47,546 bases of DNA from Chloroflexota bacterium. GTDB taxonomy: Bacteria > Chloroflexota > Dehalococcoidia > Dehalococcoidales > JAFGLR01. A model generated the notes under the pieces. The model worked only from the letters and a program-made list of their open reading frames with translations. It was not told where the DNA came from and ran no database searches. Shown piece by piece: positions 172-34,462 of this stretch. The DNA lies in NCBI GenBank assembly GCA_016210585.1, contig JACQTX010000044.1, positions 1-47,546 of the forward strand. The letters run 5' to 3'. Position numbers and translations under genes: made by a program. Position 1 is the stretch's first letter; every line of letters begins with the position of its first letter.

Positions 172-1161
172 ATGAAAATAGACGTCTTCACCCACTTAGT
201 TCCCCCCAAAGTTGCCGACTTCATGTTCCGGAAGGATATCCGGCTTCTCGAAAGGTTACGGAACTTTCCGGGGCTCTATGACCTTAGCGTGAGGTTTCGC
301 GGCATGGCCAAGAACCCGGACGTCTTGCAAGTCCTCACTGTTCCCGGTGCCTCGGTAGATGACATGGTCGGGCCGCAGGAAGCACCTGACCTCGCCCGAA
401 GAATGAACGATGAACTCGCCGAGCTGGTTTTCCACTATCCTGACCGGTTTGCCGCCGGGGTCGCGGTTCTTTCCTTCCGTGATATTGACACCACGCTAAC
501 AGAGATAGATAGAGCCATAAATGACCTGAAGCTCAGAGGAATACTTTTCCGCATTCCAGTTAACGGAAAGCCGGTGGACCGCCCTGAGTTCATGCCCATC
601 TACGAAAAGATGTGCCAGCATAACCTCCCCATCTGGTGGCATCCAGCCAGCAGTCCAAAGAAAGCTGACTATGCCGACGAGACCGAGTCAAAATACATGA
701 TATGGCACCTGTGGGGCCTCATCTACGAGACCACCATATCCATGACCCGCCTGGTCTTCAGTGGTGTGCTAGAGAAATATCCAAAGCTCAAGATAATAAC
801 CCATCACTGCGGCGCCATGACGTCATTCTTTTCGGAAAGAATCGTCTCACATTACGACCAATCGGAGATGCGGGAGAAAATGGACATTAAGGCAGGACTT
901 ACCGAACCCCACATTGACTACTTCCGCCGGTTCTATAATGATACTGCCCTTTTCGGCAACACGCCGGCACTGATGTGTGCTCATAGTTTCTTTGGCACTG
1001 ACCATATTCTCTTCGGCAGTGACAGTCCTTTCGATACACAGTGCGGGGAGTGGAGCACTAACCGGGCTGTAGAAGCCATACAACAGATGGCTATCCCTGA
1101 CGCTGACAAGAAGAAAATATTCGAGGACAACGCCAGAAGACTACTGCGCCTGGCTGTATAG
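172..1161 (+). CDS. amidohydrolase-2 family metal-dependent hydrolase/decarboxylase (ACMSD-like TIM barrel)
   Basis: 329-aa ORF with a good RBS. It has an N-terminal KIDVFTH strand, an internal IITHHCGAM block and a C-terminal ILFGSDSPFD block, all typical of this family. Recognised by eye. Confidence 0.75.
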   Translation: MKIDVFTHLVPPKVADFMFRKDIRLLERLRNFPGLYDLSVRFRGMAKNPDVLQVLTVPGASVDDMVGPQEAPDLARRMNDELAELVFHYPDRFAAGVAVLSFRDIDTTLTEIDRAINDLKLRGILFRIPVNGKPVDRPEFMPIYEKMCQHNLPIWWHPASSPKKADYADETESKYMIWHLWGLIYETTISMTRLVFSGVLEKYPKLKIITHHCGAMTSFFSERIVSHYDQSEMREKMDIKAGLTEPHIDYFRRFYNDTALFGNTPALMCAHSFFGTDHILFGSDSPFDTQCGEWSTNRAVEAIQQMAIPDADKKKIFEDNARRLLRLAV

Positions 1162-1738
1162 GGGTCGGGCCTTAATCGATTGAGCCCTTTGCCTTTGACC
1201 CTTTTGTCGTCACCCGGGTTGGCAAAATCCACTTCACCGCCTTCATAAGGCCTGCCCTCTTCCTCCTCATTGTTGCCGGACGCTAAACCTGATTCTTCAC
1301 TTGCGTTCTCCGGCTCAGCCTGGTTGCCCCACATCGGGATCCGACAAGCAAGAAGGCCGGACTGCAGGCCCACACGGTACCATGGAGAAGAATCCGAACA
1401 TTCGCCAACCAGGGCAGATTCGGGTTCCCCGCCTCGCGCTGACTCATCTGTGATCAGTTTCAGGTGATTTAGGCACATTGAACAATCTAGCGTGATGTGC
1501 AACGTAGACCTTACGATATAGCGCAGACCACTGTCAGTTGACACTCGTCATGCCGCCGGTAGGGTGACGGCCTTGCTGTTGAAAATCTTGCCGATCACCC
1601 TCATGGCTTCCGAGATTGCCTTCTGCTCCGCAAGCATGAAACTTTCGCCATCCACCACTTGCTTTGTCTTCGGCAATAGAATATTATGATGGTATTCGTT
1701 CGCAGCCGATGGTGCACCTGGATTCGGAGTAGGATGAA

Positions 1739-2155
1739 ATGACATCTCTGTGTGGATGGTCGGGGACTATCCTGGGCATTAATCTCACTGATGGTAAAAT
1801 TGAGAAGGTGCCAACCTCCTTGCAGTTCGCCCGGAAATACATTGGCGGGATTGGTTTCAACGCAGTGAGGCTTTTTGATATGACAGGGCGGGGGATAGAT
1901 GCCCTAGGCCCGGAGAATGTAATTCTGTTCGGCACCGGTCCATTTACAGGCACCCTTTATCCGGGCGGTGCACGGCTTACGGTCACGGCAAAATCGCCCC
2001 TGACGGATGTATTCGGTAGCACGAACATCGGAGGACATTTCGCGGCGGAGCTGAAACTGGCTGGCTATGACCAGGTTGCCATCCTGGGCAAATCAGACAG
2101 ACCGGTCTATCTATGGATAGATGATGACAAGGTAGAGCTAAGGAATAAGACATGA
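1739..2155 (+). pseudogene. truncated N-terminal fragment of an aldehyde:ferredoxin oxidoreductase (AOR family)
   Basis: The 138-aa ORF matches the AOR N-terminal domain (GWSGTILGINLTDGKI, GGIGFNAVRLF, FGTGPFTGT..PGGARLTVTAKSPLT, GGHFAAELKLAGYD, PVYLWIDD). It stops after about 138 aa, whereas AORs are about 600 aa. The next gene starts about 70 nt later and no further AOR-like frames follow. Confidence 0.6.
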
Positions 2156-2225
2156 CACCATAATAAATAAGCAAAAATGGGAAGCAAAAATGGGCTCGTG
2201 TGAGAGGCCCAAAAGGAGGTTTCAA

Positions 2226-3413
2226 GTGCAAAAGAAGACTCTTATCATTATCCTGTTCCTTGTCCTGTCATTGTCTATTCTCCCTCTGATAGCGGGCTGC
2301 AAGGCAAGCCCCACGCCAACGCCGAAGCCGACACCCGCGCCAACAGTAACCACTACAGCGACGGCAACCATAACCGCGCCGCCTACCACAGTAACCGCAA
2401 CACCAGCACCAGCGCCAACCGTCACTGCCACTGTGACAACATCACCTTCGCCGTCGCCAGCCCAGGCCGTTGTGCTAAAGGTATTACGCGGTCTGCCTTG
2501 GACAAGTCCCAGTAACCTTGCCTTCAAGGCGTTCTGGGACAGGGTGATTGACCGGGCAGGGGGACGCCTCGTGCTCAAAGACATCGGAGGCAGCGAGGTC
2601 TATCCGACGGCAGACCAGCTAAAGATATTAAAGCTTGGTACGGTTGACATGCTTGCCACAGCCATGGGATACATTGGACGGGACTTCCCGGAGGGCGTTG
2701 CCATGGTGTATACCTTCGGGGCGACGCCGCCCCAGATATGGGACGCCGGCCTTGTAAAAATGTTTGATGATATCCTGCTCAAAGAGCATGGTCTGCGGCT
2801 GTTGGGAATTCCTTACTATGATACCGGACATATATGGTTGGCCAAGAAGACTATTAGCTCGGTTGCTGACCTCAAAGCCATGAAAATCCGGGTCAGCGAA
2901 GACTGGTACCCGCTTGTCAACGAGCTGGCCACGGCAGTCACCATACCCTTTGGCGACATCTACACAGCAATGGAGAGGGGCGTGGTTGATGGTATGGCTT
3001 TCCCCTCAGGTGCGCTTATGGCCTACGGGCTTGAAGAGGTGACAAAGTACCGAGTTGACCCGCCTTTCTGGAGCGGGGGTGCCATGGGCACTTTTATCAA
3101 TGCCAAGAGCTTTAACGCTTTGCCCGCGGATCTTCAGCAACTGTTGAAAGATGTAGCCAAAGAGGTGGATGGCGAATCAGCCAAAATCATAGGCAAAGCA
3201 AGAGATGACGAGACGAAGATTCTTGGCAAGCTGGGCATTACGTCGGTCAAAGTGAGTGACCAGGATTGGGTAGAAACGCAGCGCGTTGCTTGGGAGAAGG
3301 CTGTTATCCCCACAGTGAAGAAGGTCAGCCCTACTCACGCAGACGAGGTCATTAAGGCTCTGTCAACCTTCTACCCACCCAAGCAACCTTATCCCGTCCG
3401 GCCATGGAAATAG
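2226..3413 (+). CDS. TRAP transporter substrate-binding lipoprotein (DctP family), cassette 1
   Basis: I prefer the GTG start at 2226, 6 nt after GGAGG (2215-2219), over the track start at 2190. Signal peptide with lipobox LIAGC, then a Thr/Pro/Ala stalk of about 60 aa, then a DctP-like body. The dctQ and dctM genes lie downstream. Confidence 0.8.
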   Translation: MQKKTLIIILFLVLSLSILPLIAGCKASPTPTPKPTPAPTVTTTATATITAPPTTVTATPAPAPTVTATVTTSPSPSPAQAVVLKVLRGLPWTSPSNLAFKAFWDRVIDRAGGRLVLKDIGGSEVYPTADQLKILKLGTVDMLATAMGYIGRDFPEGVAMVYTFGATPPQIWDAGLVKMFDDILLKEHGLRLLGIPYYDTGHIWLAKKTISSVADLKAMKIRVSEDWYPLVNELATAVTIPFGDIYTAMERGVVDGMAFPSGALMAYGLEEVTKYRVDPPFWSGGAMGTFINAKSFNALPADLQQLLKDVAKEVDGESAKIIGKARDDETKILGKLGITSVKVSDQDWVETQRVAWEKAVIPTVKKVSPTHADEVIKALSTFYPPKQPYPVRPWK

Positions 3414-3473
3414 GTCTGGGTAGGGAACGCCCTGGGAACCCTAAGAAAATAAGTTAGGGGGTTCAAAACTACG

Positions 3474-4658
3474 ATGCCAGCGAAAAAAGCATGGACCGAT
3501 GACGAAATACGTGCTGCTATCAAGGAGTGGGGCGAAAAGACAAGGCCGGAGAAGTTGAAGACCGGTGACTGGCGGGCCGAGGATTTGCCTCTATGCGACC
3601 CGCCGGGCGTGCCGCGTCTGGACCTGTGGCACAGGGTGCACTACCTAGATGAGCTAGAGCTCACCTGGGGCAAAAAGTGGGGCGCCAGCGGTCTGGGAAA
3701 GCTGCGCGAGGTTGTCGTCTCACGGCCGACCGAGCGGGACATGAATGTCTCGCCTATAATATCGGGTAGCCCGATGCACCATATCCACGCCCCGCGTGTT
3801 GGCACAACCCCCACTCTAAGGGACCTGGATGAATGGCAAAGGGAACACGATACAATGGTGCAAATTCTACGGGACAACGGAGTCACCGTCCATTACATTG
3901 AATACCCTAAAGCATATCCAGAAGGGCCTTCGGGCCCCATAGGTCCATATGGTCCCATTGGCGTACTGACGTCAATTGATTGCTGGGTAATCTGGGGTGG
4001 GGCTATTGTCGGACGTTTTGGCATACGTCCGACGGGCAGAGGCAAGGAGAGGCTGCTATCCGAATGGCTCGCCAGGATGGGATGTCCGATTCTCCTCACC
4101 ATCTCTGGGAAAGGCGTGTGTGAACCGGGTGCGTTTATGAACATTGCCGATGATTGCATGTTCCTGGCGCTCGGACCGGCGGCAAACATGGAGGGTATCA
4201 ATCAGGTCATACCTGTACTGGAAAGAGCGGGCATCACCACGGTACATATAGTCCAGCACGGGGGATGGGTAGAGTCCTGCGAATGGCCTATGGGGGGCAG
4301 CTACCACATGTCCCTGTTTATGAACCCCGTTGATATCGGCAAGATGTTACTTTACCCACCGCTCCTCAGCTGGCCGACTATCATGTGGATGAGGGAACGA
4401 GGTTTTGAGCTTATTGAGATACCTGCCGACGAGCAAAGGGACTTCAACCCGGGGTGTCTGATATGCCTTGAGCCGGGCAAGGTAATCATGCACGCCGAAG
4501 CCAAGGAGAGCATCCGTAGGGTCAGAAGAGCAGGGGTTGAGGTGATCGAGTGCCCCTCCATAACCAGCCGGGTGAAGATAGGTTTAGGTGGTGGGCTGAA
4601 TTGCCGCTGCCGCGAGCTCGTGCGCGACCGCGGTCCGGTACTTGCGGATATTAAATGA
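3474..4658 (+). CDS. amidinotransferase / arginine-deiminase (guanidino-group modifying enzyme) superfamily protein, paralogue 1
   Basis: 394 aa. The C-terminal GLGGGLNCRCRELVRDRG resembles the catalytic-Cys block of glycine amidinotransferase/StrB1 (GGGxHCWTCDVRRRG) and ADI (GGGxxCM). Candidate Asp and His blocks are NIADDCMF and GGSYHMSLF. It lies between dctP and dctQ. Confidence 0.65.
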   Translation: MPAKKAWTDDEIRAAIKEWGEKTRPEKLKTGDWRAEDLPLCDPPGVPRLDLWHRVHYLDELELTWGKKWGASGLGKLREVVVSRPTERDMNVSPIISGSPMHHIHAPRVGTTPTLRDLDEWQREHDTMVQILRDNGVTVHYIEYPKAYPEGPSGPIGPYGPIGVLTSIDCWVIWGGAIVGRFGIRPTGRGKERLLSEWLARMGCPILLTISGKGVCEPGAFMNIADDCMFLALGPAANMEGINQVIPVLERAGITTVHIVQHGGWVESCEWPMGGSYHMSLFMNPVDIGKMLLYPPLLSWPTIMWMRERGFELIEIPADEQRDFNPGCLICLEPGKVIMHAEAKESIRRVRRAGVEVIECPSITSRVKIGLGGGLNCRCRELVRDRGPVLADIK

Positions 4659-4765
4659 CGGCGAACTGCTGTCTGACTCGCGGAAAGAGCCAATAGTATG
4701 ATATAGCCTGTTCTTGATGATACCCTCAGGGCAATGATGTCAGGCGTTTTGTTAGGGAGAGCGTA

Positions 4766-5284
4766 ATGTTCGGGCGCGGTTTTGACCGTCTGCTGAGATA
4801 CCTGTCTGTCATATTAGGCGGCCTTATCGCCTATCTTGTGCTTGGCGTGACCTATGAGGTCATTATGCGGTACGTGTTCAACCACCCCAGCCAGTGGTCG
4901 GTTGATGCCACTGAATACTCCCTTCTATTTATACTCTTCCTGGGCTCGGCGTGGGTACTGGCAGGGGAAGCACACGTTAAGGTTGATATCCTGCTGGTCA
5001 TTTTGCCAAGACGGGTGCAGCACGTGATGAACGCAGTCACTTCCGCGATAGCCGCCGTTGGCTGCGCGTTATTCTTCTGGCAGAGTGTGACGCAGACTTG
5101 GACAGCTTTTGTCGGCAAAGAGTTCATCTGGAAGTCACTTATCTTACCTAAGTGGCCGAGCTGGGCAGTGATGTCCTTCGGTATGTTGCTTCTTGTCATC
5201 CAGTTTTCTCGAAGAGCCTGGCGCTTCGCAAGGGAACAGCCCGAGAAAGAGCTGGCTGAGAAGCTCCCGGATGGGGTAGGCTAA
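4766..5284 (+). CDS. TRAP transporter small permease (DctQ family), cassette 1
   Basis: 172 aa with four predicted TM helices and the typical RYVFNHP..W..E motif region. It sits immediately upstream of the large permease. Confidence 0.8.
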   Translation: MFGRGFDRLLRYLSVILGGLIAYLVLGVTYEVIMRYVFNHPSQWSVDATEYSLLFILFLGSAWVLAGEAHVKVDILLVILPRRVQHVMNAVTSAIAAVGCALFFWQSVTQTWTAFVGKEFIWKSLILPKWPSWAVMSFGMLLLVIQFSRRAWRFAREQPEKELAEKLPDGVG

Positions 5285-5320
5285 CGAGTGGTTATCTTAG
5301 GATGGGAATAGTCTAAACCT

Positions 5321-6640
5321 ATGCAGTGGGAATGGTGGGTTAGCCTGCTCGTTATCGGGGGGATACTTATTTCGTTCTTTCTCTCCGGGCTTCCGGTGGC
5401 TTTTGCCTTTCTGACCTTTAATATCATTGGATTTGTTGTCTTCATGGGAGGCGTGCAGAATCTCAGCCTTTTGGTACCTAGTGCCTTCGCCAGTGTCACC
5501 AGCTTTGCGTGGGTGCCGGCGCCGCTGTTCATTTTCATGGGTGAGATAATATTCCAGAGCGGCTTGGCCAAGATGATGGTGGATAGTGTGGCCAAATGGA
5601 TTGGGCGAATCCATGGCAGCCTCAGCCTGGTCGGCATCGCTGCCGGGACCATTTTCGCCATGATGAGCGGCTCATCTCTCAGTGGCGTAGCTGTTTTTGG
5701 CTCGACCCTCGTCCCTGAAATGAAGAGGCGCGGCTATCAAAAGCCGATGATTTATGCCCCCATTCTGGCCGCGGGGGGACTGGCGACTCTGATTCCGCCC
5801 AGCGTTCTGACTGTCATTTTAGCGGCTCTGGCACAGCAGTCGCTTGGCAAGCTCCTGGTGGCCAGTTTCATACCAGGGTTCATGTTAGCCGCACTCTATG
5901 CTACGTATATTCTGGTGCGGGGCAAGCTCCAACCACATTTAGCACCTGACTTCGCCCCGCCGCGAGTCACCTGGCGTGATAGGATGAAAGCTGTGGTGCT
6001 TATCTTACCACTGGGCATCATTATCTTCCTAGTGCTGGGCGTCATCTTTGTGGGAGTGGCCACGCCAACCGAAGCGGCAGCGCTGGGCGCTGTCGGTACG
6101 GTTGTTTTGGCCGCAGCGTACCGCCGGCTAACCTGGCAGGGAATCAAAAAGGCACTCATGGAAACAGCCAAGGTGAACGTCATGGTCTTCACCATTATTA
6201 TGTCGGCCACCGCCTTTAGCCAGGTACTTGCGTTTACCGGCGCCACCAGGGAACTGGCCAAGCTGGCGGTGAGCCTGCCCATTGCACCTATTCTTATCGT
6301 TGCCGCCACACAGGTGGTCATGATTGTAGCGGGAATGTTCATGGATACCCTTTCCATGATGATGATATTTATCCCCATCTTTTTTCCGGCAATTCATACC
6401 CTCGGTCTTGACCCGATATGGTATGGCATCCTCATGTTGGTAAATCTGGAGATGGCAGGCGTTTCTCCACCATTCGGATTGCTGCTGTTTACCTTGAAAG
6501 GTGTAGTCCCTGACGCGACCATGGGAGACATTTACCGGGCTGGTATCCCAGTCTGTCTATTGATAGGGACATTACTAGCACTGTTACTCTTCTTCCCATC
6601 GCTGGTAACAATCCTGCCGCAGCTCATGAAGGGCGGATAG
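5321..6640 (+). CDS. TRAP transporter large permease (DctM family), cassette 1
   Basis: 439 aa and polytopic. It has DctM-like blocks (PLFIFMGE, GSSLSGVAVFGSTLVPEM, GVSPPFGLLLF). Confidence 0.9.
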   Translation: MQWEWWVSLLVIGGILISFFLSGLPVAFAFLTFNIIGFVVFMGGVQNLSLLVPSAFASVTSFAWVPAPLFIFMGEIIFQSGLAKMMVDSVAKWIGRIHGSLSLVGIAAGTIFAMMSGSSLSGVAVFGSTLVPEMKRRGYQKPMIYAPILAAGGLATLIPPSVLTVILAALAQQSLGKLLVASFIPGFMLAALYATYILVRGKLQPHLAPDFAPPRVTWRDRMKAVVLILPLGIIIFLVLGVIFVGVATPTEAAALGAVGTVVLAAAYRRLTWQGIKKALMETAKVNVMVFTIIMSATAFSQVLAFTGATRELAKLAVSLPIAPILIVAATQVVMIVAGMFMDTLSMMMIFIPIFFPAIHTLGLDPIWYGILMLVNLEMAGVSPPFGLLLFTLKGVVPDATMGDIYRAGIPVCLLIGTLLALLLFFPSLVTILPQLMKGG

Positions 6641-6703
6641 ATCAGTGCGGAAAATCATCTGCCAATCTCGGACACAATTATCAATGAAAAAGGGGGTAGA
6701 AGA

Positions 6704-7168
6704 ATGAAAATAAAACGCTTGCTATGTGACAATGCGGCCGTGGTGAGCCTGGAGGAGGCGGAGAAGTTCTTCCGGGACGTTCTGGGGGCGAAAATCAGCC
6801 CGGAGATGCCTCACGGGAAGTACTTCGGGTTCCGCGCCAAGGGAGCATGGCTGGGGACGGAGGCGCCTTACCGCCTGGAGCTGCTGCAATCAACCAGTGA
6901 TGAGCTGCCCATGGGTCGGTCGGTAAAAAGGATGGCGCCCAGGTACCGGACGGTCTCACTGGAGGTCGAGGATATAGATGCAGCCATCGCCGAGCTGCGG
7001 GCCAAGGGCATAACAGTCACTGACAAGCTGGATATGACACCGAAGGGGTTTGGCGGTATTGGCTTCGAAAGCATAACGGAGTGCGTTATACACCCGAAGG
7101 ACGCCTGTGGGCTGCGTATCGAGCTGGTCGAGATAAAAGGCAAAAGGCCACCACCCGGGGAGTGGTAA
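6704..7168 (+). CDS. VOC (glyoxalase/bleomycin-resistance/dioxygenase) family protein
   Basis: 154 aa with an AGGGGG RBS. The beta-alpha-beta-beta-beta module pattern is present (FFRDVLGA ... SLEVEDIDAAIAELRAKGI ... GLRIELVE). Confidence 0.6.
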   Translation: MKIKRLLCDNAAVVSLEEAEKFFRDVLGAKISPEMPHGKYFGFRAKGAWLGTEAPYRLELLQSTSDELPMGRSVKRMAPRYRTVSLEVEDIDAAIAELRAKGITVTDKLDMTPKGFGGIGFESITECVIHPKDACGLRIELVEIKGKRPPPGEW

Positions 7169-7223
7169 TCTCGCAGAGCCAAGTGTGCAGGGTAGGATGC
7201 TGTGTAACAGAGAAAGCGGCACT

Positions 7224-8594
7224 ATGGAGAAGAGGTACTATCATCGTGAGCTGGAGACCATGCCGAGGAGCGACTTCCTGGCATGCCAGTGGCAGAAGCT
7301 CAAGGAGCAGATAGAGTACACCTATCGGAAAAGCGACCTCTGCCGACGGCAGTTCGCTCAGACTGGCTTAACCCCGGTGGACATCAAGACCAGAGAAGAC
7401 TTCACCCGTAAAGTGCCTTTCACCACCAAGCAGGACTTCATCGCTGACCAGCAAATAAGCCCTCCCTACGGAACACGGCTGGCCGTCGCCGAAAATGAGG
7501 TGTTTCTTACCTATTTGACCAGCGGCACCTCCGGCCGGGGACAGGAGGTCCACGCCATGACCGAGGAGGACTATCACTTCTATGCCTCTGAAGCTATAGC
7601 CATGCTCTACACCTGGTGCGGCTGGAAGCGGGGCGATAAGGTGATGAACCCGCTGCCGCTAGGCATGCCTATTGGTGGCACGCTGCGGTATGCCGGCCTG
7701 CTGCGGCTGGGCTGTGACATATTCAACCTGGGCATGTATGACACAAAGGCCAAGCTTGAGCTAATGCAGAGGTTCAAAATAAGCGGTATCAATGCCAGTG
7801 CTGCCTACCTACAAGCCCTGACCAACCAGGCGGAAGAGATGGGCCTGGACCCGGGCCGTGACCTCTCGGTCAGGCGGATACTGATGGCCGGGCAAGCCTA
7901 TCCCGCTTCGTTCGTGCCCCGGATGCAGGAGAAATGGCAGGCCAAAATTTACGACTATTATGGGGCCACGCAATACTCGGTAGGCAGCACCTGTGAGAAG
8001 GGCGCTGTCACGGAGGGTCGGCGAGGATATTACCACCTCTTTGAGCATGTGGCACTCCACGAAGTAATTGACCCGGAGACTGGTGGGCCGGTGGAGCCGG
8101 GCGAGGTCGGCGAGCTGGTGGTGACCCCACTCTTCAAGAGGGCTTCCCCGTTCCTCCGCTTCCGTATGGGCGATAAGGTGCGCTATTTCCCGCCGGAAGC
8201 CTGCGATTGCGGACGGCCCTTTCCCCTGCTGGAGGCGGGCACCATCGCCCGCTACGATGATATGATGAAGGTGAGGGGCATGAACATCTGGCCCCAGGCG
8301 GTGGATGAGGTGGTGCTGGGCAAGCCGGAGATAGCTGAATACAAGGGTAGAGTCTATATCTCCGACGAGGCAAAAGAGAAGATTGAGGTAGCCGTCGAGT
8401 TCAAGCCCGACGCCAGCCCCGAGGCCCGGCGCGCCTTGCTGGCACGAATAGGCGACGAGCTGCGTGAGAAGACCGGTGTATCCTTCATCACAAATGAAGC
8501 GGCTGAGACGTTGCCCCGGTATGTGACCAAATCGCTTTCCCTCCGCTGGGCTGATGAGCGCATCAAAGGCCTGGAGAAAAAGAGGATGGACTAG
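7224..8594 (+). CDS. phenylacetate-CoA ligase-like adenylate-forming enzyme (PaaK / F390-synthetase family)
   Basis: I prefer ATG 7224 (MEKRYYHRELETMPRSD..., typical PaaK N-terminus) over the track start at 7185. It has the P-loop LTSGTSGRGQ and PaaK-like C-terminal blocks (RFRMGD, DDMMKVRGMNIWP). Confidence 0.8.
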   Translation: MEKRYYHRELETMPRSDFLACQWQKLKEQIEYTYRKSDLCRRQFAQTGLTPVDIKTREDFTRKVPFTTKQDFIADQQISPPYGTRLAVAENEVFLTYLTSGTSGRGQEVHAMTEEDYHFYASEAIAMLYTWCGWKRGDKVMNPLPLGMPIGGTLRYAGLLRLGCDIFNLGMYDTKAKLELMQRFKISGINASAAYLQALTNQAEEMGLDPGRDLSVRRILMAGQAYPASFVPRMQEKWQAKIYDYYGATQYSVGSTCEKGAVTEGRRGYYHLFEHVALHEVIDPETGGPVEPGEVGELVVTPLFKRASPFLRFRMGDKVRYFPPEACDCGRPFPLLEAGTIARYDDMMKVRGMNIWPQAVDEVVLGKPEIAEYKGRVYISDEAKEKIEVAVEFKPDASPEARRALLARIGDELREKTGVSFITNEAAETLPRYVTKSLSLRWADERIKGLEKKRMD

Positions 8595-8634
8595 GCGCAC
8601 TGTGTTCAGGAAAACACTTTCGTAAGGATAGAAA

Positions 8635-9111
8635 ATGGTTACTGCTGAGAAGAAACAGTTCCCGGTGCTGCCAGGGGCATGGACGACCCCTTCCGCGCCC
8701 GGTGAGAAGCCGCACCTCATCGGCAGCCGGTGCCCGGCCTGCGGTGAGGTGTTCTTTCCCCGGAAGCCCAAAGGGCGCTGCACTCACTGCCAGCACGACG
8801 GCCTGGAGGAGATTAAGCTCAGCCGGCAAGGGAAAATCTTCACCTTCACCGTGGTCACGCAGCCACCCGGTGGCGGCTATTATCACGGGCCGGTGCCCTA
8901 TGCCTTCGGGCTGGTCAGGCTGCCGGAAGGGGTCTACGTGGAAAGCCCGCTGGTAGCTGATGACCTGGACGCGCTTAAAGTGGGTATGGATGTAGAACTG
9001 GTTATCGGGAAGGTCTGGGGAGATAGCGAGGGTAATGAGTTGATAGGCTTCAAGTTCCGGACAGTCCAATCCGCCAGGAAGAAGGAGGCTGCCGGTGAAA
9101 TCGCTAGGTGA
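8635..9111 (+). CDS. DUF35-type Zn-ribbon/OB-fold protein (thiolase partner)
   Basis: 158 aa. It has a CPACG...CTHC rubredoxin-like ribbon followed by an OB-fold-like region. It overlaps the downstream thiolase gene by 17 nt. Confidence 0.8.
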   Translation: MVTAEKKQFPVLPGAWTTPSAPGEKPHLIGSRCPACGEVFFPRKPKGRCTHCQHDGLEEIKLSRQGKIFTFTVVTQPPGGGYYHGPVPYAFGLVRLPEGVYVESPLVADDLDALKVGMDVELVIGKVWGDSEGNELIGFKFRTVQSARKKEAAGEIAR

Positions 9112-10258
9112 ACTGAAGGCACTGCGGGAGGTAGTGGTGGCGGGCATCGGCATTACCAGGTGGGGTGTCTATCCGGAGCAGGAGTGGTATGACCTGGGCA
9201 GTGAGGCCGTTCTTTTGGCCCTCAAGGATGCCGGCATGGAGTTCAGAGACATACAGGCCGCCTTCTGCGGCAGCTGCTACCAGGGGGTAGGCTCAGGGCA
9301 CCAGGCACTCGCCGAAATCGGCAAGACCGGCATACCAATTGTCAACGTGGAAAATGCTTGCTCCAGTGGCTCATCAGCCTTCCGGCTAGCCTATCAGCAG
9401 ATTGCCACAGAGCTTTACGATATCGTGCTCGCTGTGGGCTTCGAGAAGCAGCAACATAAGGGATTTATCCCCAGCACCGCCTTCCGGCCCTGGGAGAGAC
9501 TACTGGGCTATAATGTCCAGCCAGCCAACTATGCCAAAGGGGTCGTGCGGTATATGGAGGACTACGGCGCGACCATAGAGGACTTTTCCTTGGTCACCGT
9601 CAAAAACCGCCGGAATGCGACCATGAACCCGAACGCCAGGTTTCAGCAAGAAGTCACTCTGGAAGAGGTGATGAGCTCTCGCATGATTGCCAAACCGCTC
9701 CGTCTGCTGCACTGCTGCCCCCTGGCTGATGGCGCGGCCGCCGCCATTCTATGTAGCCGGGACAAGCTCAAAAACAAAGATAGGGCCGTAACTGTGGCCG
9801 CTTCGGTGCTAGCTTCCGGGGTATATGGCGAGCATGAGACAGCGGGGGGCAGCATCAAGTTCCCCCCGGCGGTGGGCATGGTAGAGCTTTCCGTCCGGCA
9901 GGCCTGGGAGCTATCCGGGTATGGGCATGAGGACATGGACGTAATCCAGGTATATGACGCCATGTCACCCGGCGAGCTGTGGGACATAGAGAAGCTTGGC
10001 TTCTGCCGTCCTGGGCAGGCCCCGCGTCTACTGAGGGAAGGGGTATTCGATATCGGCAGCAGACTTCCGGTGAACACCGACGGCGGCCTGATGGGGCGTG
10101 GCCACCCGATGGGTGCCACCGCCCTGGCGCAGATAATCGAAGTTGTCACCCAGCTAAGGGGCGAGGCCGGACCGAGGCAAGTCGCCGGTGCCAGGGTCGG
10201 CCTGGCCCACAGCATGGGTGCCGGGCCTAACTCAGTGGTCACCATCCTGAAAAGGTGA
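9095..10258 (+). CDS. thiolase-like protein (SCP-x / non-specific lipid-transfer type)
   Basis: GTG start 7 nt after GAAGGAGG. Active-site block NVENACSSGSSAF, plus C-terminal NTDGGL..GHPMGATA and HSMGAG blocks. Confidence 0.85.
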   Translation: MKSLGELKALREVVVAGIGITRWGVYPEQEWYDLGSEAVLLALKDAGMEFRDIQAAFCGSCYQGVGSGHQALAEIGKTGIPIVNVENACSSGSSAFRLAYQQIATELYDIVLAVGFEKQQHKGFIPSTAFRPWERLLGYNVQPANYAKGVVRYMEDYGATIEDFSLVTVKNRRNATMNPNARFQQEVTLEEVMSSRMIAKPLRLLHCCPLADGAAAAILCSRDKLKNKDRAVTVAASVLASGVYGEHETAGGSIKFPPAVGMVELSVRQAWELSGYGHEDMDVIQVYDAMSPGELWDIEKLGFCRPGQAPRLLREGVFDIGSRLPVNTDGGLMGRGHPMGATALAQIIEVVTQLRGEAGPRQVAGARVGLAHSMGAGPNSVVTILKR

Positions 10259-12774: not shown

Positions 12775-12818
12775 AAGGCAGGCGGCAAACGGTTTCCTAC
12801 TGCCACCCGGAAGACAGA

Positions 12819-13811
12819 ATGGCTTTTCAGACGCAGGATGTCCGGCGAAAGACCTTCGCCATTCTTAAGATTCTGAGCGATTCGCCGGAAGCTATAGGGG
12901 CACGGCTCATCGCCCGCCGCCTGAAGGAGCATGGCATAGCTCTCGGCGAGAGGGCAGTCCGTTACCACCTGAAGCTGCTTGACGCGCGTGGCCTGACCCA
13001 ATTAGTAGGAAAAGATGGTCGGCAGATTACCGAGCGCGGCGTAGAGGAACTGGGGAATGCTCTGGTCCGGGAGAAGGTTGGCCTCGCTATCTCCAGAATT
13101 GAGTTGCTGGCTTTTCGCACTACCTTTGACTGGGAGAAACGCTCCGGCAATGTCCCGGTAAACGTTGCCTTCTTTCCCAAGGAACGTTTCGGCAGGGCTG
13201 TGCGGGAAATGAGACCGGTCTTTGAAGCCGGTCTCTGCGTAAGTGACCTGGTGGGTGTTGTCCGTGAGGGTGAGCTTATCGGGGACTATATTGTGCCCCG
13301 CGGACGGATTGGCCTGGTAACTGTCTGTAGTGTGTTGATAAACGGGGTTTTGCTTAAGGCCGGTGTGCCGGTGGACTCGAAATTTGGCGGCATTCTGCAA
13401 ATAAGCGAGGGGAAACCGTTGCGTTTCGTGGAGCTTATCCACTATGCCGGGTCATCCCTGGACCCATCGGAGGTTTTTATCCGGTCACGGATGACCTCGG
13501 TGATGGATGTGGTGGAACAGGGGGAAGGCAATATCCTGGCTAATTACCGGGAGATACCGGCAGCCTGCCGGACGCTGGCGGAGGAGGTAATCGCCAGGCT
13601 GAAGATAGCCGGCATAGGCGGTGTGTTGGTGATGGGCAATACCAGCGAGCCGGTCTGTGAAATACCTGTGGAGCTTGACCGGATTGGCCTTGTGCTGGGT
13701 AGCGGTCTAAACCCGGTGGCCGCCGCCGGCGAAACCGGGCTGGAAGCGGAAAGCCATGCGATGACAGCGGTCATGGACTATGGGAAGCTAACAAAATTCG
13801 GGGAGCTATAG
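12819..13811 (+). CDS. NrpR-like transcriptional regulator (winged HTH + one DUF128/NrpR domain)
   Basis: 330 aa. The N-terminal wHTH (ILKILSDSPEAIGARLIARRLKEHGIALGERAVRYHLKLLD) is followed by an NrpR-type domain (ISRIELLAFRTTFD..., VCSVLINGVLLKAGVP). Confidence 0.65.
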   Translation: MAFQTQDVRRKTFAILKILSDSPEAIGARLIARRLKEHGIALGERAVRYHLKLLDARGLTQLVGKDGRQITERGVEELGNALVREKVGLAISRIELLAFRTTFDWEKRSGNVPVNVAFFPKERFGRAVREMRPVFEAGLCVSDLVGVVREGELIGDYIVPRGRIGLVTVCSVLINGVLLKAGVPVDSKFGGILQISEGKPLRFVELIHYAGSSLDPSEVFIRSRMTSVMDVVEQGEGNILANYREIPAACRTLAEEVIARLKIAGIGGVLVMGNTSEPVCEIPVELDRIGLVLGSGLNPVAAAGETGLEAESHAMTAVMDYGKLTKFGEL

Positions 13812-13813
13812 AG

Positions 13814-14584
13814 ATGAAAGAGGTAAAGGTCATACCCTGCCTGGACATAAGGGAGGGACGGGTAGTGAAAGGCGTGAAGTTCGTCAACCTGAGGGATGCC
13901 CGTGACCCGGTAGAGGCGGCGGAAGCCTACTGCCGCGCGGGTGCCGATGAGCTGGCCTTCCTGGACATCTTCGCCACGGTCGAGAATCGTAAGACGAGGT
14001 TGGAATGGGTCCGCCGAGTCGCGGAAGTCGTCAGTGTCCCCTTCACCGTGGGCGGTGGCATTGCCAGCATCCAGGACATGGACGCCCTGATAGACCTCGG
14101 CGTGGACAAGGTCTCCATAAACACTGCCGCCGTAAAGAACCCGGGTCTCATCCAAGAGGCCGCCCGAGAGTTCGGCAGCGAAAAGATTGTGGTGGCCATA
14201 GACGGACGTAAGAACCCCCTGTCCAGCAATGCCCCGCACCTTGAGGTGGTCATCAAGAGCGGCACGGAGCCGACGGGCATGCATATTTCGGAATGGGCCA
14301 AGCGGGTGGAAGACCTGGGTGCCGGCGAGATCCTGCTTACCAGCAAAGATGCTGACGGCACCAAAGAGGGCTATGACCTGGAGATGACGCGGGAGGCGGC
14401 GCGGGTCGTCAGCATACCGGTGACGGCTTCCGGTGGCGCCGGCAAGCTGGAGCATTTCTATGACGCGGTAATCATCGGGAAGGCATCGGCCGTCCTGGCG
14501 GCTTCTGTTTTTCACTTTGGCGAGATAGCCATACCGGATGTGAAGAGATACCTGAAAGAAAGAGGCATTCCAGTCAAAAGGTAG
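13814..14584 (+). CDS. hisF: imidazole glycerol phosphate synthase cyclase subunit HisF
   Basis: Near-consensus HisF blocks: VIPCLDI..GRVVKGVKF, GADELAFLDI, PFTVGGGI, GVDKVSINTAAV, GAGEILLTSKDADGTKEGYDL, VTASGGAG and AASVFHFGE. Confidence 0.92.
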   Translation: MKEVKVIPCLDIREGRVVKGVKFVNLRDARDPVEAAEAYCRAGADELAFLDIFATVENRKTRLEWVRRVAEVVSVPFTVGGGIASIQDMDALIDLGVDKVSINTAAVKNPGLIQEAAREFGSEKIVVAIDGRKNPLSSNAPHLEVVIKSGTEPTGMHISEWAKRVEDLGAGEILLTSKDADGTKEGYDLEMTREAARVVSIPVTASGGAGKLEHFYDAVIIGKASAVLAASVFHFGEIAIPDVKRYLKERGIPVKR

Positions 14585-18073: not shown

Positions 18074-18277
18074 ATATCCGTGACTTTCTTCCTGAAAACA
18101 ACTTTTTCTTTCTCGCCTCGTATCGCCATGCGGTGGTAGATTCAGCCGGCATCCAGATACCAGACCGTCCTGGATTCCGGTTGGAGTTTACCCCGTTCAC
18201 GGTGGACTGTTCAAGGTGTTACCCGTGCTTCGACACGAGGCCGGAATGGACAGCGGTTGTATTTTCGGGGTGATAAC

Positions 18278-19393
18278 ATGCACTCCTCAGAACTCAATAT
18301 TGCCATCATCGGTGCCGGGGTCATTGGCCTGGCCGTAGCGGCGGAAATGGCACAGAAGCACAGGGGCGTCTATGTCTTCGAGAGAAACCGCACCTTCGGC
18401 CTGGAGACGAGCAGTCGGAACAGCGAGGTCATCCACGCCGGTATCTACAATCCCCCCGGCTCGCTGAAGGCAAAGCTCTGCGTCGAAGGCAGAGAGCTAC
18501 TCTATGAGCTTTGTGCGCGCCACGGCATCAGCCATCGTAAGCTAGGCAAAATCATTGTGGCCGTGGACGAAGATGAATTCGGGAAGCTGGAAAGGCTCTG
18601 CGAGCAGGGCAGAGAGAATGGTGTTGACGATTTGCGTTTTCTCTCCCGAAAAGAGCTAAGACAGCTTGAGCCGGAGGTAGAAGGTATCGGTGGCTTGCTC
18701 TCCCCTTCCACCGGCATCCTTGACGTCCATGCCCTGATGAGCTTCTTTCACAGCCAGGCAAAACGAAGTGGTGCTGAGTTCGTCTTCAACGCGGAGGTGA
18801 TTGGCCTGGAAAAGACCGGCACAAAATACCGCCTGGGCGTCAGGGATAGAGAGGGTATCCAGTCTGTTCTTGCCAGAATAGTCATAAACTGTGCTAGCCT
18901 GAACTCAGACCAGATAGCCCAACTCGCTGGCATTGACACCTCGGAAGCAGGCTACAGGCTTCACTACTGCAAAGGGGAATATTTCAGCCTCAGCCCGCCG
19001 CAGCGCGATCTGGTCAGCCGGCTTGTTTATCCGGTCCCGGAGGAATCAGGGCTGGGCATTCACATCACCCGTGATATCGAAGGGAAGCTGCGGCTCGGCC
19101 CCAATGCCTATTACATAGATAACATAGACTATAAGGTGGACGATACTCATAAAGAAGCCTTCTACCAGGCGGTCAAGAGATTTCTGCCCGCTATTGAACG
19201 GGAATGGCTGGCCCCCGATTTCGCCGGTATCCGGTCCAAGCTCCAGGGACCGGGCGACGGTTTCCGTGACTTCGTCATCGCTCATGAGGACAAGCGCGGT
19301 CTGCCCGGCCTTATCAACCTCATCGGTATTGAGTCTCCCGGCCTCACCGCCTCGCCGGCTGTTGCGAGATACGTGGCGGGAATGATAGAATAA
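18278..19393 (+). CDS. FAD-dependent oxidoreductase, L-2-hydroxyglutarate oxidase/dehydrogenase (LhgO)-like
   Basis: I prefer ATG 18278 over the track's TTG at 18257. It has an N-terminal Rossmann IAIIGAGVIGLAVAAE, plus SSRNSEVIHAGIY and a C-terminal GIESPGLTASPAVA block typical of this DAO-type subfamily. Confidence 0.7.
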   Translation: MHSSELNIAIIGAGVIGLAVAAEMAQKHRGVYVFERNRTFGLETSSRNSEVIHAGIYNPPGSLKAKLCVEGRELLYELCARHGISHRKLGKIIVAVDEDEFGKLERLCEQGRENGVDDLRFLSRKELRQLEPEVEGIGGLLSPSTGILDVHALMSFFHSQAKRSGAEFVFNAEVIGLEKTGTKYRLGVRDREGIQSVLARIVINCASLNSDQIAQLAGIDTSEAGYRLHYCKGEYFSLSPPQRDLVSRLVYPVPEESGLGIHITRDIEGKLRLGPNAYYIDNIDYKVDDTHKEAFYQAVKRFLPAIEREWLAPDFAGIRSKLQGPGDGFRDFVIAHEDKRGLPGLINLIGIESPGLTASPAVARYVAGMIE

Positions 19394-19395
19394 GC

Positions 19396-19872
19396 ATGTT
19401 ATCGGGGTTTGTTGTGGCTGACGAGCTAGCGAAAATCTTAGCATCATACCGGGGCAACAGAAGCGAGCTACTGTCCATTCTGCGAGAAGTGCAGGACACC
19501 TTCAACTATCTACCGGAAGAAGCCATGCGGCAGGTGGCCAAGTTCATTGGCATTCCGGAAAGCCAACTCTACTCTGTGGCCTCTTTCTACTCTCATTTCC
19601 GCCTGACGCCACTGGGTCGGAAGCGGATTTCCGTCTGCCGCGGCACGGCCTGTCACATTCGCGGTGCCCCGCAGGTCATAGAGGAGGCCGGGCGTCTCCT
19701 TGGCGTCAAGGAATCGGAGACAACACCTGACCTGGAATATACCCTGGAGACTGTGGCCTGTATCGGCTGCTGTGCACTGGCACCCTGCCTGCGTGTGAAT
19801 GAGGAAGTCCACGGCGAGGTGACGCTGAAGAAGGTGCGGGAGCTACTGCCCGACTTGAACAATGGAGCATAG
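19396..19872 (+). CDS. NuoE/HydC-like [2Fe-2S] thioredoxin-fold subunit
   Basis: CRGTACHIRG ... CIGCCALAPC Cys pattern. 158 aa. It starts 2 nt after the upstream stop. Confidence 0.85.
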   Translation: MLSGFVVADELAKILASYRGNRSELLSILREVQDTFNYLPEEAMRQVAKFIGIPESQLYSVASFYSHFRLTPLGRKRISVCRGTACHIRGAPQVIEEAGRLLGVKESETTPDLEYTLETVACIGCCALAPCLRVNEEVHGEVTLKKVRELLPDLNNGA

Positions 19873-21499
19873 CATGGCGGACGGGCAGTGCACAGTGACA
19901 GTTTGCCAGGGGACTGGCTGTATCTCCAATGGCGCCGACCGGCTCTACGCCGCGTTGCAGGCCGAAGTGGTTCGACTCAACCTCGGTGACAGTATTCACG
20001 TCAAGCAGACTGGTTGCCAGGGCTTCTGCCAGCGCGGACCGCTCGTTATCACCAGGCCTGATGGCACCTTCCATTGCAGGGTCACACCGGAAGACGTCCC
20101 CGATTTTGTCCAATCGCTTTTGCCTGGCGGCAAGCCTGCCGAGCGCCTCTACTATCGCGACATGGTGACGGCGCGGGCGACAGCCCACTGGGCGGATATT
20201 CCCTTCTACTACCAGCAGGAGCGCCGTGTCCTGCGCAACTGCGGGCATATTGACCCGGAGAATATCGAGGAATACATAGCCGCTGGCGGCTACCGGGCAC
20301 TGCACCGTGCCCTGTTTGAGATGGCGCCGGAGGAGGTTATCGCCGAGGTCAAACGCTCCGGGCTGCGCGGGCTGGGCGGCGCCGGTTTCCCGGCAGGGCG
20401 CAAGTGGGAGAGCTGCCGGAAAGCCCCAGGCGAGCCGAAGTTCGTCATCTGCAATGCCGACGAGGGCGACCCCGGTGCTTTTCAGGACCGCTCGCTTTTG
20501 GAGGGCGACCCCCACTCCGTTCTGGAAGGCATGACCATCGCCGCCTACGCGGTAGGTGCTCACAAAGGCTTCGTCTATGTTCGCGCCGAGTACCCACTGG
20601 CTGTGAGGCGCCTTGGGGTTGCCGTGACGCAGATGCGGGAAAAGGGCTATCTGGGCAAAGGCATCCTGGGCAGCGGCTTTGATTTCGATATCGAAATCTT
20701 CCAGGGCGCCGGGGCTTTCGTCTGTGGCGAGTCAACAGCCCTGGTGCTCTCCATCGAAGGCAAACGTGGTATGCCTAAGGCACTGCCCCGGCCGCGCACG
20801 TCCGAGGTCGGCCTGTGGGGTAAGCCTACCCTGCTCAACAACGTGAAGACCTTTGGCAACGTCCCGCTCATTATCGCCCACGGCGCCGATTGGTTTGCTC
20901 GCCTGGGCAATGCGCAGAGCAAGGGCACGGCTATCTTCTCCCTTACGGGCAAAATTGTCAATAGCGGCCTCATCGAGGTGCCTATGGGCACCCGGCTACG
21001 TGAGGTTATCTATGACATCGGCGGGGGGATTCCTGACGGGCGGGCTTTCAAGGCGGTACAAACGGGCGGGCCTTCCGGTGGCTGCCTGCCAGCCTCCATG
21101 CTCAACATGCCCGTGGACTTTGATTCCCTCAAGGCTGCCGGCTCCATGATGGGGTCGGGCGGCATGGTAATCATGGATGAGGACACGTGCATGGTTGATG
21201 TGGCCCGCTATTTCCTCGATTTCTCGCGCCGCGAGTCCTGCGGGCAGTGCACCCCTTGCCGTGTGGGCACGCAGCAGATGTTTGCCATTCTGGATGATAT
21301 TACGCAGAGGAAAGGCAAGCCGGGTGACATCGAAGTGCTTTTGGAGCTGGGCGAGGCAATGGCGCAGACCTCCATCTGTGCCCTGGGCCAGACGGCGCCC
21401 AATCCCGTGCTGACCACTATCCGCCACTTCCGCTCCGAGTATGAAGCCCATATTTACGAGAAGCGATGTCCGGCCGGCGCCTGCCGGGCATACCTGTAG
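19862..21499 (+). CDS. NuoF/HydB-like NAD(H)-binding FMN/[4Fe-4S] subunit with N-terminal [2Fe-2S] domain
   Basis: GLRGLGGAGFPAGRKW, CNADEGDPGAF, GAGAFVCGESTAL, ESCGQCTPCRVG and ICALGQTAPNPV blocks. It overlaps the nuoE-like gene by 11 nt. Confidence 0.9.
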   Translation: MEHSMADGQCTVTVCQGTGCISNGADRLYAALQAEVVRLNLGDSIHVKQTGCQGFCQRGPLVITRPDGTFHCRVTPEDVPDFVQSLLPGGKPAERLYYRDMVTARATAHWADIPFYYQQERRVLRNCGHIDPENIEEYIAAGGYRALHRALFEMAPEEVIAEVKRSGLRGLGGAGFPAGRKWESCRKAPGEPKFVICNADEGDPGAFQDRSLLEGDPHSVLEGMTIAAYAVGAHKGFVYVRAEYPLAVRRLGVAVTQMREKGYLGKGILGSGFDFDIEIFQGAGAFVCGESTALVLSIEGKRGMPKALPRPRTSEVGLWGKPTLLNNVKTFGNVPLIIAHGADWFARLGNAQSKGTAIFSLTGKIVNSGLIEVPMGTRLREVIYDIGGGIPDGRAFKAVQTGGPSGGCLPASMLNMPVDFDSLKAAGSMMGSGGMVIMDEDTCMVDVARYFLDFSRRESCGQCTPCRVGTQQMFAILDDITQRKGKPGDIEVLLELGEAMAQTSICALGQTAPNPVLTTIRHFRSEYEAHIYEKRCPAGACRAYL

Positions 21500-21506
21500 G
21501 GTTTGT

Positions 21507-21585
21507 AGCTATCAGCAGTCAGCCTTCGGTTTGTGTATTGTAAATAATCAATAAGCTGATAGCTGAAAGCTGATTGCTGATAGCT
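21507..21585. repeat. palindromic intercistronic repeat (agctatcagc family)
   Basis: The arms agctatcagcagtcagc (21507-21523) and gctgattgctgatagct (21569-21585) are 16/17 complementary. It shares 13-nt agctgattgctga and 10-nt gctgaaagct with 42829-42897. Confidence 0.6.
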
Positions 21586-21600
21586 TCGTGTTGGGGTCTG

Positions 21601-26380: not shown

Positions 26381-26429
26381 ATCTATGCGTAAAGGCGGCC
26401 AAGTCGAGACTCTTTTCAGGGGGTGTGCT

Positions 26430-30574: not shown

Positions 30575-30583
30575 AATGGCCTC

Positions 30584-33655: not shown

Positions 33656-33674
33656 GTTTATACCTCAATTACCT

Positions 33675-34139: not shown

Positions 34140-34347
34140 TAGCTCACCTCAACTGCGATTTACGAAAGAAAGGACTGCTAGCCGATAGGGAAACCGAAAG
34201 GCGTTTCACCGGGAATGTGAGTGGAAAGATGGGGAAAAGAAAGCGCCCGGATAAACATCTTGAGCGCTGATACGTGTCTATGGCCGCCCATTAAAGTCCT
34301 GTCAGCTTGGATTATACCCTATCCCGCGTTAACATTCAAGCTTCCGA

Positions 34348-34455: not shown

Positions 34456-34462
34456 ACTCAGG

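Follow-up and report, generated by a model that had tools for sequence, protein, structure and literature searches.

A 47,546-nucleotide stretch of contig JACQTX010000044.1 (assembly GCA_016210585.1), from a Chloroflexota bacterium of the Dehalococcoidales and referred to here as the window, codes for two tripartite ATP-independent periplasmic (TRAP) transporters, each with a gene for a guanidino-group-modifying enzyme (GME) within or beside its operon. The first locus, cassette 1 (positions 2226 to 6640), was initially annotated as a TRAP transporter with an inserted amidinotransferase-superfamily enzyme, and the second, cassette 2, lies at 34595 to 39057. By sequence and predicted fold, both enzymes belong to a small clade of the GME superfamily of which the 2-nitroimidazole nitrohydrolase NnhA is the only characterized member. 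We propose, with a probability of roughly 55%, that each locus is an uptake-plus-first-step catabolic module in which an NnhA-like hydrolase acts on an imported carboxylate.

Two TRAP loci with related enzymes

In cassette 1, dctP1 (2226 to 3413), the gene for the 394-amino-acid enzyme 1 (3474 to 4658), dctQ1 (4766 to 5284), and dctM1 (5321 to 6640) follow one another on the plus strand in the order P-E-Q-M with gaps of 60, 107, and 36 nucleotides (nt), so that both the gene order and the short gaps of the initial annotation are confirmed by the open reading frame (ORF) map and by Pfam and NCBIfam matches. The accompanying remark that the gaps lack terminators agrees with a consensus promoter and terminator scan, which places no terminator-like sites in them, but the scan is uninformative; it returned 10 sites in total versus 9 ± 3 in shuffled sequence, and because these counts are equal it is no evidence either way. 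The likely start of dctP1 is the GTG at 2226, with AAGGAGG at 2213 to 2219, 6 nt ahead, within a longest ORF of 2190 to 3413. Its product is a TRAP solute-binding lipoprotein (PF03480, E = 7e-30; NF037995, 61.9 bits versus a cutoff of 50) with the lipobox LIAGC, a Thr/Pro-rich linker of ∼70 amino acids, and an Arg of the conserved carboxylate-binding type in the motif MKIRV. DctQ1, the small membrane subunit, matches PF04290 over model positions 1 to 131 of 132 (E = 1.5e-26), and DctM1, the large membrane subunit, matches PF06808 over positions 3 to 412 of 413 (E = 2e-78) and scores 285 bits with TIGR00786, for which the cutoff is 268. Enzyme 1, which ends in ...GLGGGLNCRCRELVRDRGPVLADIK, scores 33.4 bits with the GME superfamily model PF02274 (cutoff 22.8).

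Cassette 2 is also on the plus strand and has the order P-Q-M-E, with the enzyme gene beginning 20 nt after dctM2. It comprises dctP2 (34595 to 35848; PF03480, E = 1e-24; NF037995, 68.9 bits versus the same cutoff of 50), dctQ2 (35918 to 36397; PF04290, E = 2.6e-24), dctM2 (36542 to 37870, with a listed ORF start of TTG; PF06808, E = 1.4e-70), and the gene for the 388-amino-acid enzyme 2 (37891 to 39057; PF02274, 32.0 bits versus 22.8). The dctP2 product is likewise a TRAP solute-binding lipoprotein, with the lipobox LTAC, an Ala/Pro/Thr linker, and the Arg in the motif MKLRV, such that a K[IL]RV motif is present in both solute-binding proteins (SBPs) of the window. DctM2 falls just below the TIGR00786 cutoff (259 versus 268 bits), and in both TRAP systems the three components are complete, above Pfam cutoffs, and cover nearly the full models.

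Judging from sequence comparison, the two transporters belong to different TRAP lineages and the enzymes alone are close paralogs. Enzymes 1 and 2 are 62% identical, whereas DctM1 and DctM2 share 30% identity, DctQ1 and DctQ2 share 24%, and the two DctP proteins are barely alignable, with one marginal 69-residue segment (BLASTP E = 8e-4). The second cassette had been described as clearly paralogous to the first, and this is borne out for the enzymes but not for the gene order or the transporters. Duplication of a whole cassette was rejected because divergence between the transporters greatly exceeds that between the enzymes and because the gene orders differ. A mobile cassette bounded by repeats was also rejected; no direct or inverted repeats flank either locus, and the sole repeat joining the two (216 nt, 71% identity) lies inside the enzyme genes. 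Enzyme 2 is 80% identical to P0002, a protein from an uncultured Dehalococcoidales metagenome-assembled genome (MAG), and enzyme 1 is 62 to 64% identical to both, so the enzyme duplication predates the split of those organisms. Among the ∼45 genes of the window there are two TRAP systems and two GME genes, with every GME gene in or beside a TRAP operon, and chance adjacency is unlikely (a rough estimate is ∼1%).

Family, fold, and rarity of the enzymes

The closest solved relative of enzyme 1 in a PDB sequence search is NnhA (E = 3e-50), and profile searches with the enzyme family rank NnhA (5e-81) ahead of dimethylarginine dimethylaminohydrolase (DDAH; 1e-18), arginine deiminase (ADI; 6e-14), and glycine amidinotransferase (AGAT; 2e-10, over the C-terminal half only). 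An AlphaFold2 model of enzyme 1 built on 60 homologs (pLDDT 92.4, pTM 0.91) predicts the alpha/beta-propeller fold of the GME (pentein) superfamily, Pfam clan CL0197, to which we assign both enzymes. Foldseek gives a probability of 1.00 for the model against NnhA, ADI, AGAT, and DDAH structures, with NnhA as the top match (template-modeling [TM] scores of 0.79/0.84, 30% identity, and ∼384 aligned columns, nearly the whole protein); the TM scores of ADI, amidinotransferases, and DDAH, normalized to the query, are 0.54 to 0.62. The superfamily named in the initial annotation is therefore upheld by the PF02274 scores and these pentein matches, but the resemblance it drew to AGAT, StrB1, or ADI is superseded by the closer relationship with NnhA.

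On both enzymes the NCBIfam equivalog models for ADI and DDAH score 16 to 29 bits, versus cutoffs of 340 to 489; TIGR01078 (arcA) gives 28.9 and 24.3 bits (cutoff 489) and NF045658 (DDAH) gives 26.3 and 18.2 bits (cutoff 450). Enzyme 1 was rejected as an arginine deiminase on the basis of the arcA score, the Ser at the position equivalent to D280 (with D166, one of the two Asp residues of ADI that bind guanidinium), and TM scores of only 0.57 to 0.62 to ADI structures (399 to 412 residues); the sequence alignment with ADI is good only over the C-terminal ∼65 residues, plus a weak N-terminal stretch with the streptococcal enzyme. Assignment as DDAH was rejected given the equivalog scores, the absence of D60 and R132 equivalents, and the Ser after His-x (Lys in DDAH), although a D66-like acid and one Arg of the DDAH substrate contacts (D60, D66, R85, and R132) are present. 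Nor are the enzymes NnhA orthologs, as D262 is replaced by Ser, W149 by Asp169, and M168 by Gly or Ala, and identity to NnhA is 30 to 33% versus >50% among known orthologs.

The clade is small. When 1.84 billion representatives were searched exhaustively with HMMER, 42 clusters matched at E ≤ 1e-30, a number that rose to 142 at ≤ 1e-10 and to 385 at ≤ 1e-3, and the GTDB representative genomes contain only six loci with the enzyme family. NnhA itself is described in PMC11659421 as an outlier in a cluster of uncharacterized bacterial and archaeal proteins, and its authors regard function as not predictable below 50% identity. The N-termini of both window enzymes do not have the look of signal peptides on direct reading, which suggests that the enzymes are cytoplasmic.

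Active site

By alignment, the hydrolase-type Cys-His-Glu triad is intact in both enzymes. C377, H278, and E217 of enzyme 1 align with NnhA C357, H260, and E197, and C377 and E217 also align with C249 and E114 of DDAH; the corresponding residues of enzyme 2 are C371, H272, and E211. All 60 homologs retain the Cys and the His, and the Glu is nearly invariant among them. The triad of AGAT is Cys-His-Asp. The initial annotation envisaged such a Cys-His-Asp triad, and proper alignment supports its Cys and His, but the acidic partner is the hydrolase-type Glu217, which makes amidinotransferase a poor label. In NnhA, mutation of C357 or H260 abolishes activity, E197 is the catalytic acid (assigned by comparison with ADI and DDAH), and D262 and N311 are essential, with D262N being inactive, as reported in PMC11659421.

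The other key positions are D169, R189, S280, and C328 in enzyme 1 and D163, R183, S274, and N322 in enzyme 2; relatives have Asp at 280 and Asn at 328. Most family members have His-x-Asp, an acid (mostly Glu) at 169, [KR]-Gly at 189 to 190, and Asn at both 238 and 328. In profile alignments, position 169 (Asp or Glu) falls on the column of NnhA W149, a residue that PMC11659421 treats as the counterpart of the second Asp that binds the guanidino group in ADI and DDAH, and R189 pairs with Arg86 of Pseudomonas aeruginosa DDAH, beside Arg85. No Asp is present in the window enzymes at the alpha-amino-binding position equivalent to DDAH D60. Because of the acid at 169 and the [KR]-Gly at 189 to 190, the bulk of the family looks like guanidino-acid hydrolases, with NnhA having lost polar contacts. 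The His-x-Ser variant was found only in enzyme 1, enzyme 2, and P0002 among the sequences examined (5.8 billion protein clusters), and a second protein search with enzyme 2 as the query returned no His-x-Ser member beyond P0002.

Genomic neighborhoods of relatives

Neighborhoods were compiled from precomputed gene calls and an ORF, phmmer, and clustering pipeline over 41 nonredundant loci, 35 of them contributed by a metagenome scan and many too short to be informative. The enzyme gene lies beside TRAP genes at six sites: the two in the window, L013 (a Chloroflexi groundwater MAG; order E-UbiD-P-Q-M), L014 (Chloroflexota; E-P-Q-M), L037 (AOR-P-Q-M-E-E, where AOR is an aldehyde ferredoxin oxidoreductase gene), and L006 (a Dehalococcoidales MAG), in which the enzyme gene is convergent with that for a 582-amino-acid DctM-domain permease. 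The pairing in cassette 1 occurs twice in the window and recurs in other genomes. The DctM proteins form at least four lineages, one with cassette 1 and L013 (48% identity), one with L014 and L037 (50%), cassette 2 alone, and L006, such that the TRAP-linked sites span at least four TRAP lineages and four gene orders. That linkage survives these changes in gene order and transporter lineage argues for functional coupling.

Further relatives are located next to or inside ATP-binding cassette (ABC) importer operons of the Opp and LIV types. In L015 (a Desulfatiglandales MAG), an Opp-type operon at ∼300 to 9650 reads SBP5, creatinase-like M24, permease, permease, enzyme, ATPase, and this enzyme-inside-transporter layout parallels that of cassette 1. 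Recurrent neighbors are creatinase-like M24 (∼9 loci), CN_hydrolase (∼4 loci), and M20 (one locus). Xanthine-dehydrogenase-type molybdenum (Mo) hydroxylases are beside relatives in L009 and L020, and a PreA-like dihydropyrimidine dehydrogenase is beside relatives in L016 and L036. Full-length AOR genes are near homologs in L037 (directly upstream of dctP), L022, and L036, and L013 has two UbiD decarboxylases, of which the one adjoining the enzyme gene best matches PDB 6h6x. No transporter is nearby in the P0017 and P0021 subclades. We note that the L013 DctP (12786 to 13832, beside the P0006 homolog) has no match to the pattern K-[ILVM]-R; a visual read of the L001 copy gives MKIGG, suggesting that Gly stands in place of the conserved carboxylate-binding Arg, and its ligand may not be a simple carboxylate.

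Surroundings of the two cassettes

Four plus-strand genes at 6704 to 10258 lie close behind dctM1, with spacing from a 63-nt gap down to a 17-nt overlap. From Pfam, NCBIfam, and the ORF map, these code for a vicinal oxygen chelate/glyoxalase-like protein (6704 to 7168), a PaaK-like acyl-coenzyme A (CoA) ligase (7185 to 8594), a DUF35/BbsA-like protein (8635 to 9111), and an SCP-x/BbsB-like thiolase (9095 to 10258). Together they may form a CoA-dependent pathway by which the carbon skeleton is processed further downstream, a role that is not conserved in relatives. Upstream of cassette 1 is a gene for an Amidohydro_2 protein of the ACMSD/LigW/gamma-resorcylate-decarboxylase/IDCase class (172 to 1161), followed by an AOR N-terminal fragment of 138 amino acids (1739 to 2155, plus strand) that matches only positions 2 to 128 of the 199 in PF02730 (AFOR_N), aligns with residues 4 to 135 of a 641-amino-acid AOR, and ends 35 to 70 nt before dctP1. 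No AFOR_C match is present among the scanned window proteins, and the fragment is probably a pseudogene remnant marking a rearrangement at the edge of cassette 1. The ∼580 nt between the Amidohydro_2 gene and this fragment (1162 to 1738) contain no convincing ORF and no Rfam match; the lone ORF in this gap region (minus strand, 981 to 1544) looks spurious.

Directly after enzyme 2, a gene at 39418 to 42774 (plus strand) codes for an 1,118-amino-acid lipoprotein with two CARDB domains and a PsbP-like domain, followed by a family-5 (Opp/Dpp-type) solute-binding domain; no ABC permease was found among the scanned neighboring ORFs. The whole window contains no riboswitch match in Rfam at gathering thresholds, and relaxed scans of 1100 to 2300 and 34100 to 34650 for guanidine or other riboswitches gave no credible match. 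A full-length homolog of the NrpR-type nitrogen repressor (12819 to 13811, plus strand; PF01995, E = 1e-80) sits between pdxT-like and hisF-like genes and beside a glutamate-synthase-domain protein. Control of the cassettes by NrpR was considered and rejected, as the three GGAA-N6-TTCC sites in the window are not above chance and none is upstream of either cassette.

Other features of the window

Two paralogous NuoE-/NuoF-/FdhA-like gene sets are present in inverted orientation at 19396 to 24156 (plus strand) and 27893 to 34139 (minus strand), with arms of 73 to 74% complementary DNA (e.g., 20319 to 20601 versus 32871 to 33153). In the minus-strand set, the NuoF-like protein is a 1,023-amino-acid fusion with a GltD/dihydropyrimidine-dehydrogenase-type Fer4_20 plus Pyr_redox_2 module, and an in-frame TGA at 29540 to 29542 divides the coding sequence of the formate-dehydrogenase-like molybdopterin subunit (27893 to 30574) into two ORFs. 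This TGA lies within ...HCARL-TGA-HAPTVAG... and, because it occupies the expected selenocysteine place, the organism probably uses selenocysteine. The plus-strand set is preceded by a gene for a DAO-family flavoprotein (18257 to 19393), whose best NCBIfam match, L-2-hydroxyglutarate oxidase, is below the cutoff. A protein with the N-terminal domain of a GmrSD-type (DUF262) restriction endonuclease is encoded at 26385 to 27800 (plus strand) and is seemingly unrelated to the TRAP and enzyme loci.

Proposed function and alternatives

From the gene content, predicted fold, catalytic triad, and recurrent transporter linkage, we infer a direction for the pathway, its chemistry, and a class of substrate. 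The lipoprotein-anchored TRAP binding protein would capture an organic acid via its conserved Arg, and DctQM would bring the acid into the cell. There, the C-terminal Cys (C377 in enzyme 1, C371 in enzyme 2) would attack the imported acid at an amidine-type sp2 carbon, for which guanidino, amidino, and ureido carbons and C2 of an N-heterocycle are the candidates, and a nitrogen-containing leaving group (or other C-X group) would be expelled. Water activated by His278 and Glu217 would then hydrolyze the covalent thio-intermediate, with release of nitrogen and formation of an oxo or ureido product, which in cassette 1 may pass to the downstream CoA ligase and thiolase. The covalent thio-intermediate mechanism is established for ADI and DDAH and is proposed for NnhA.

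As the substrate class we favor carboxylic acids of the guanidino or ureido type that lack an alpha-amino group and carry a modified terminal nitrogen, and the acids taken up by the two modules are probably related but not the same. A guanidino or ureido acid is favored by the family-wide polar pocket and by the CN_hydrolase, M20, and M24 neighbors of relatives; by analogy, such ureido- and amide-cleaving neighbors recall agmatine catabolism, in which a deiminase is followed by a decarbamoylase. An N-heterocyclic or aromatic acid is favored by the Asp-to-Ser change, the kinship with NnhA, and the decarboxylase-, Mo-hydroxylase-, and aryl-CoA-ligase-type neighbors.

Several observations weigh against the proposed module or its preferred substrates. 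In ADI, the Asp of the His-x-Asp motif binds the guanidinium. This aspartate is Ser in both window enzymes (S280 and S274), which makes a plain guanidinium substrate doubtful; the uptake and processing of guanidino acids suggested in the initial annotation may still apply but is weakened. Enzyme 1 has a Cys where NnhA has the essential N311 (Asn in enzyme 2), and the equivalent of DDAH R132, the second carboxylate-binding Arg, is Ala; the residue mapping itself comes from sequence and profile alignments, which are ambiguous by one residue at positions 163, 169, and 188/189. Neither window cassette has a CN_hydrolase, M20, or M24 gene nearby, and the neighbors in the window and L013 (the ACMSD/LigW-class Amidohydro_2 protein, the PaaK-like ligase, and UbiD) point to aromatic or heteroaromatic acids. 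Both SBPs are also too far from solved SBPs for ligand inference (the closest matches are at E = 1e-15 to 1e-16, with 2e-16 the best for dctP1); the solved SBP 4NN3 is confirmed to bind orotate but is likewise too distant, and inference of the ligand from solved SBPs was dropped.

A less probable alternative, but one to be taken seriously, is NnhA-type chemistry on an imported N-heterocyclic carboxylate, with a ring substituent displaced or a cyclic amidine opened via a Cys-thioimidate. Substrates could be 2-substituted imidazole-, pyrimidine-, or similar carboxylates or acetates with nitro, amino, or other leaving groups, and later steps would involve a decarboxylase and CoA-dependent enzymes. 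This would accord with the activity of the sole characterized clade member, with the small residue at 163 and the Cys-Arg dipeptide that the window clade has in common with NnhA, and with the lost His-x-Asp aspartate, a change that would suit a reactive group without positive charge. The Amidohydro_2 protein and the PaaK-like aryl-acid ligase near cassette 1, the two UbiD proteins of L013, and the Mo hydroxylases and PreA-like enzymes near other relatives are also in keeping with it. However, the hydrophobic W149 and M168 of NnhA are replaced by an acid (D169) and the adjacent R189, as in guanidino-acid enzymes, and D262, essential in NnhA, is absent from the window enzymes. The identity to NnhA of only ∼30% is below the 50% under which its authors caution that function is not predictable, and decarboxylase-type genes are not conserved partners across the loci. 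It is also conceivable, if rather improbable, that the His-x-Ser subclade catalyzes a GME reaction type not yet known, in which the Cys would mediate hydrolysis at an amidine-like carbon that is neutral or anionic. The substrate, delivered by a dedicated TRAP importer, could then be a cyclic amidine, a ureido acid, or an N-heterocyclic carboxylate with a substituent.

We consider it unlikely that the adjacency is without functional meaning, or that the enzymes act on an endogenous metabolite such as arginine or methylarginine apart from the TRAP substrates. Public annotation does label relatives as DDAH or ADI family, and some relatives (P0017 and P0021) have no nearby transporter, but both window GME genes are in or beside the window's only two TRAP operons, and relatives are linked to at least four lineages of TRAP transporter as well as to ABC importers despite changes in gene order. 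Moreover, the enzymes lack the residues that would contact the alpha-amino group of an arginine-type substrate and make the second contact with its carboxylate, and the ADI and DDAH equivalog scores are far below their cutoffs. Transfer of an amidino group to or from the imported acid, instead of hydrolysis, is very unlikely. The Foldseek matches to the amidinotransferases AGAT, SxtG, HsvA, and StrB1 (TM scores of 0.57 to 0.60, normalized to the query) and the AGAT profile match are compatible with such a reaction, but the hydrolase matches (NnhA and DDAH) are stronger, the acid is at the Glu position of ADI, DDAH, and NnhA, and the surroundings consist of importers and catabolic enzymes rather than a biosynthetic cluster.

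GME hydrolases are a known kind, as are TRAP operons that include catabolic enzymes, and neither the mechanism nor the architecture of the system is surprising. What is new is the pairing of a TRAP transporter with an NnhA-like enzyme, as judged from the literature searched, together with the His-x-Ser subclade, which is extremely rare. No TRAP/GME system, and no pairing of TRAP with an NnhA-like GME, was found in that literature, in agreement with the initial annotation, which knew of no characterized TRAP/amidinotransferase system. With two intact paralogs, each genetically tied to its own SBP, the SBPs can serve as reporters of the substrates. If these are guanidino, ureido, or heterocyclic acids, the loci would define an entry point into catabolism and a TRAP specificity that are both new, would explain the repeated placement of relatives in or beside importer operons, and would reveal what loss of the His-x-Asp aspartate does to the chemistry; with ordinary substrates, they would be merely one more TRAP-linked catabolic operon. 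Should the His-x-Ser enzymes indeed catalyze a new reaction type, Dehalococcoidia-type Chloroflexota would have a previously unrecognized means of nitrogen acquisition from recalcitrant N-rich organic acids.

Comparison with known systems

NnhA from Mycobacterium sp. JS330 (PDB 9azg/9b01; PMC11659421) resembles the window enzymes in having the triad at aligned positions, the Cys-Arg dipeptide, and no ADI-type helical insertion domain. It differs in that its M168 aligns with Gly188 of enzyme 1 (Ala in enzyme 2), which the conserved Arg189 follows, and in being an actinobacterial resistance and catabolic enzyme, for which the sections of PMC11659421 consulted mention no transporter link. P. aeruginosa DDAH (PDB 1H70) shares with the window enzymes a pentein fold without extra domains, Cys-His-Glu, an acid at the first position that binds the guanidino group, and an Arg-Gly motif near R85/R86; in both, the second residue past the catalytic His is not Asp, being Lys in DDAH and Ser in the window enzymes. 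However, identity is ∼17%, the NCBIfam DDAH models score 16 to 26 bits versus cutoffs of 340 to 450, D60 and R132 have no equivalents, and the window enzyme carries an additional arm of ∼65 residues at its N-terminus as well as further lid elements.

The ADI and agmatine deiminase pathways are similar in their covalent Cys chemistry at an amidine-type carbon, and genes of relatives adjoin CN_hydrolase or M20 genes much as that for agmatine deiminase adjoins the N-carbamoylputrescine amidohydrolase gene. In contrast to these pathways, the window has no carbamoyl-cleaving partner, the Asp of His-x-Asp is missing, and arcA scores are 24 to 29 bits versus 489. At the level of the operon, the closest parallel drawn is with SiaPQM and its sialic acid catabolism genes, which share the DctP/Q/M architecture, an Arg carboxylate clamp, and the coupling of an importer to the first catabolic enzyme. 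TRAP-catabolic operons of this type differ from cassette 1, in which the enzyme gene lies between dctP and dctQ, and the window SBPs are lipoproteins with long Thr/Pro linkers, which we read as typical of a single-membrane organism.

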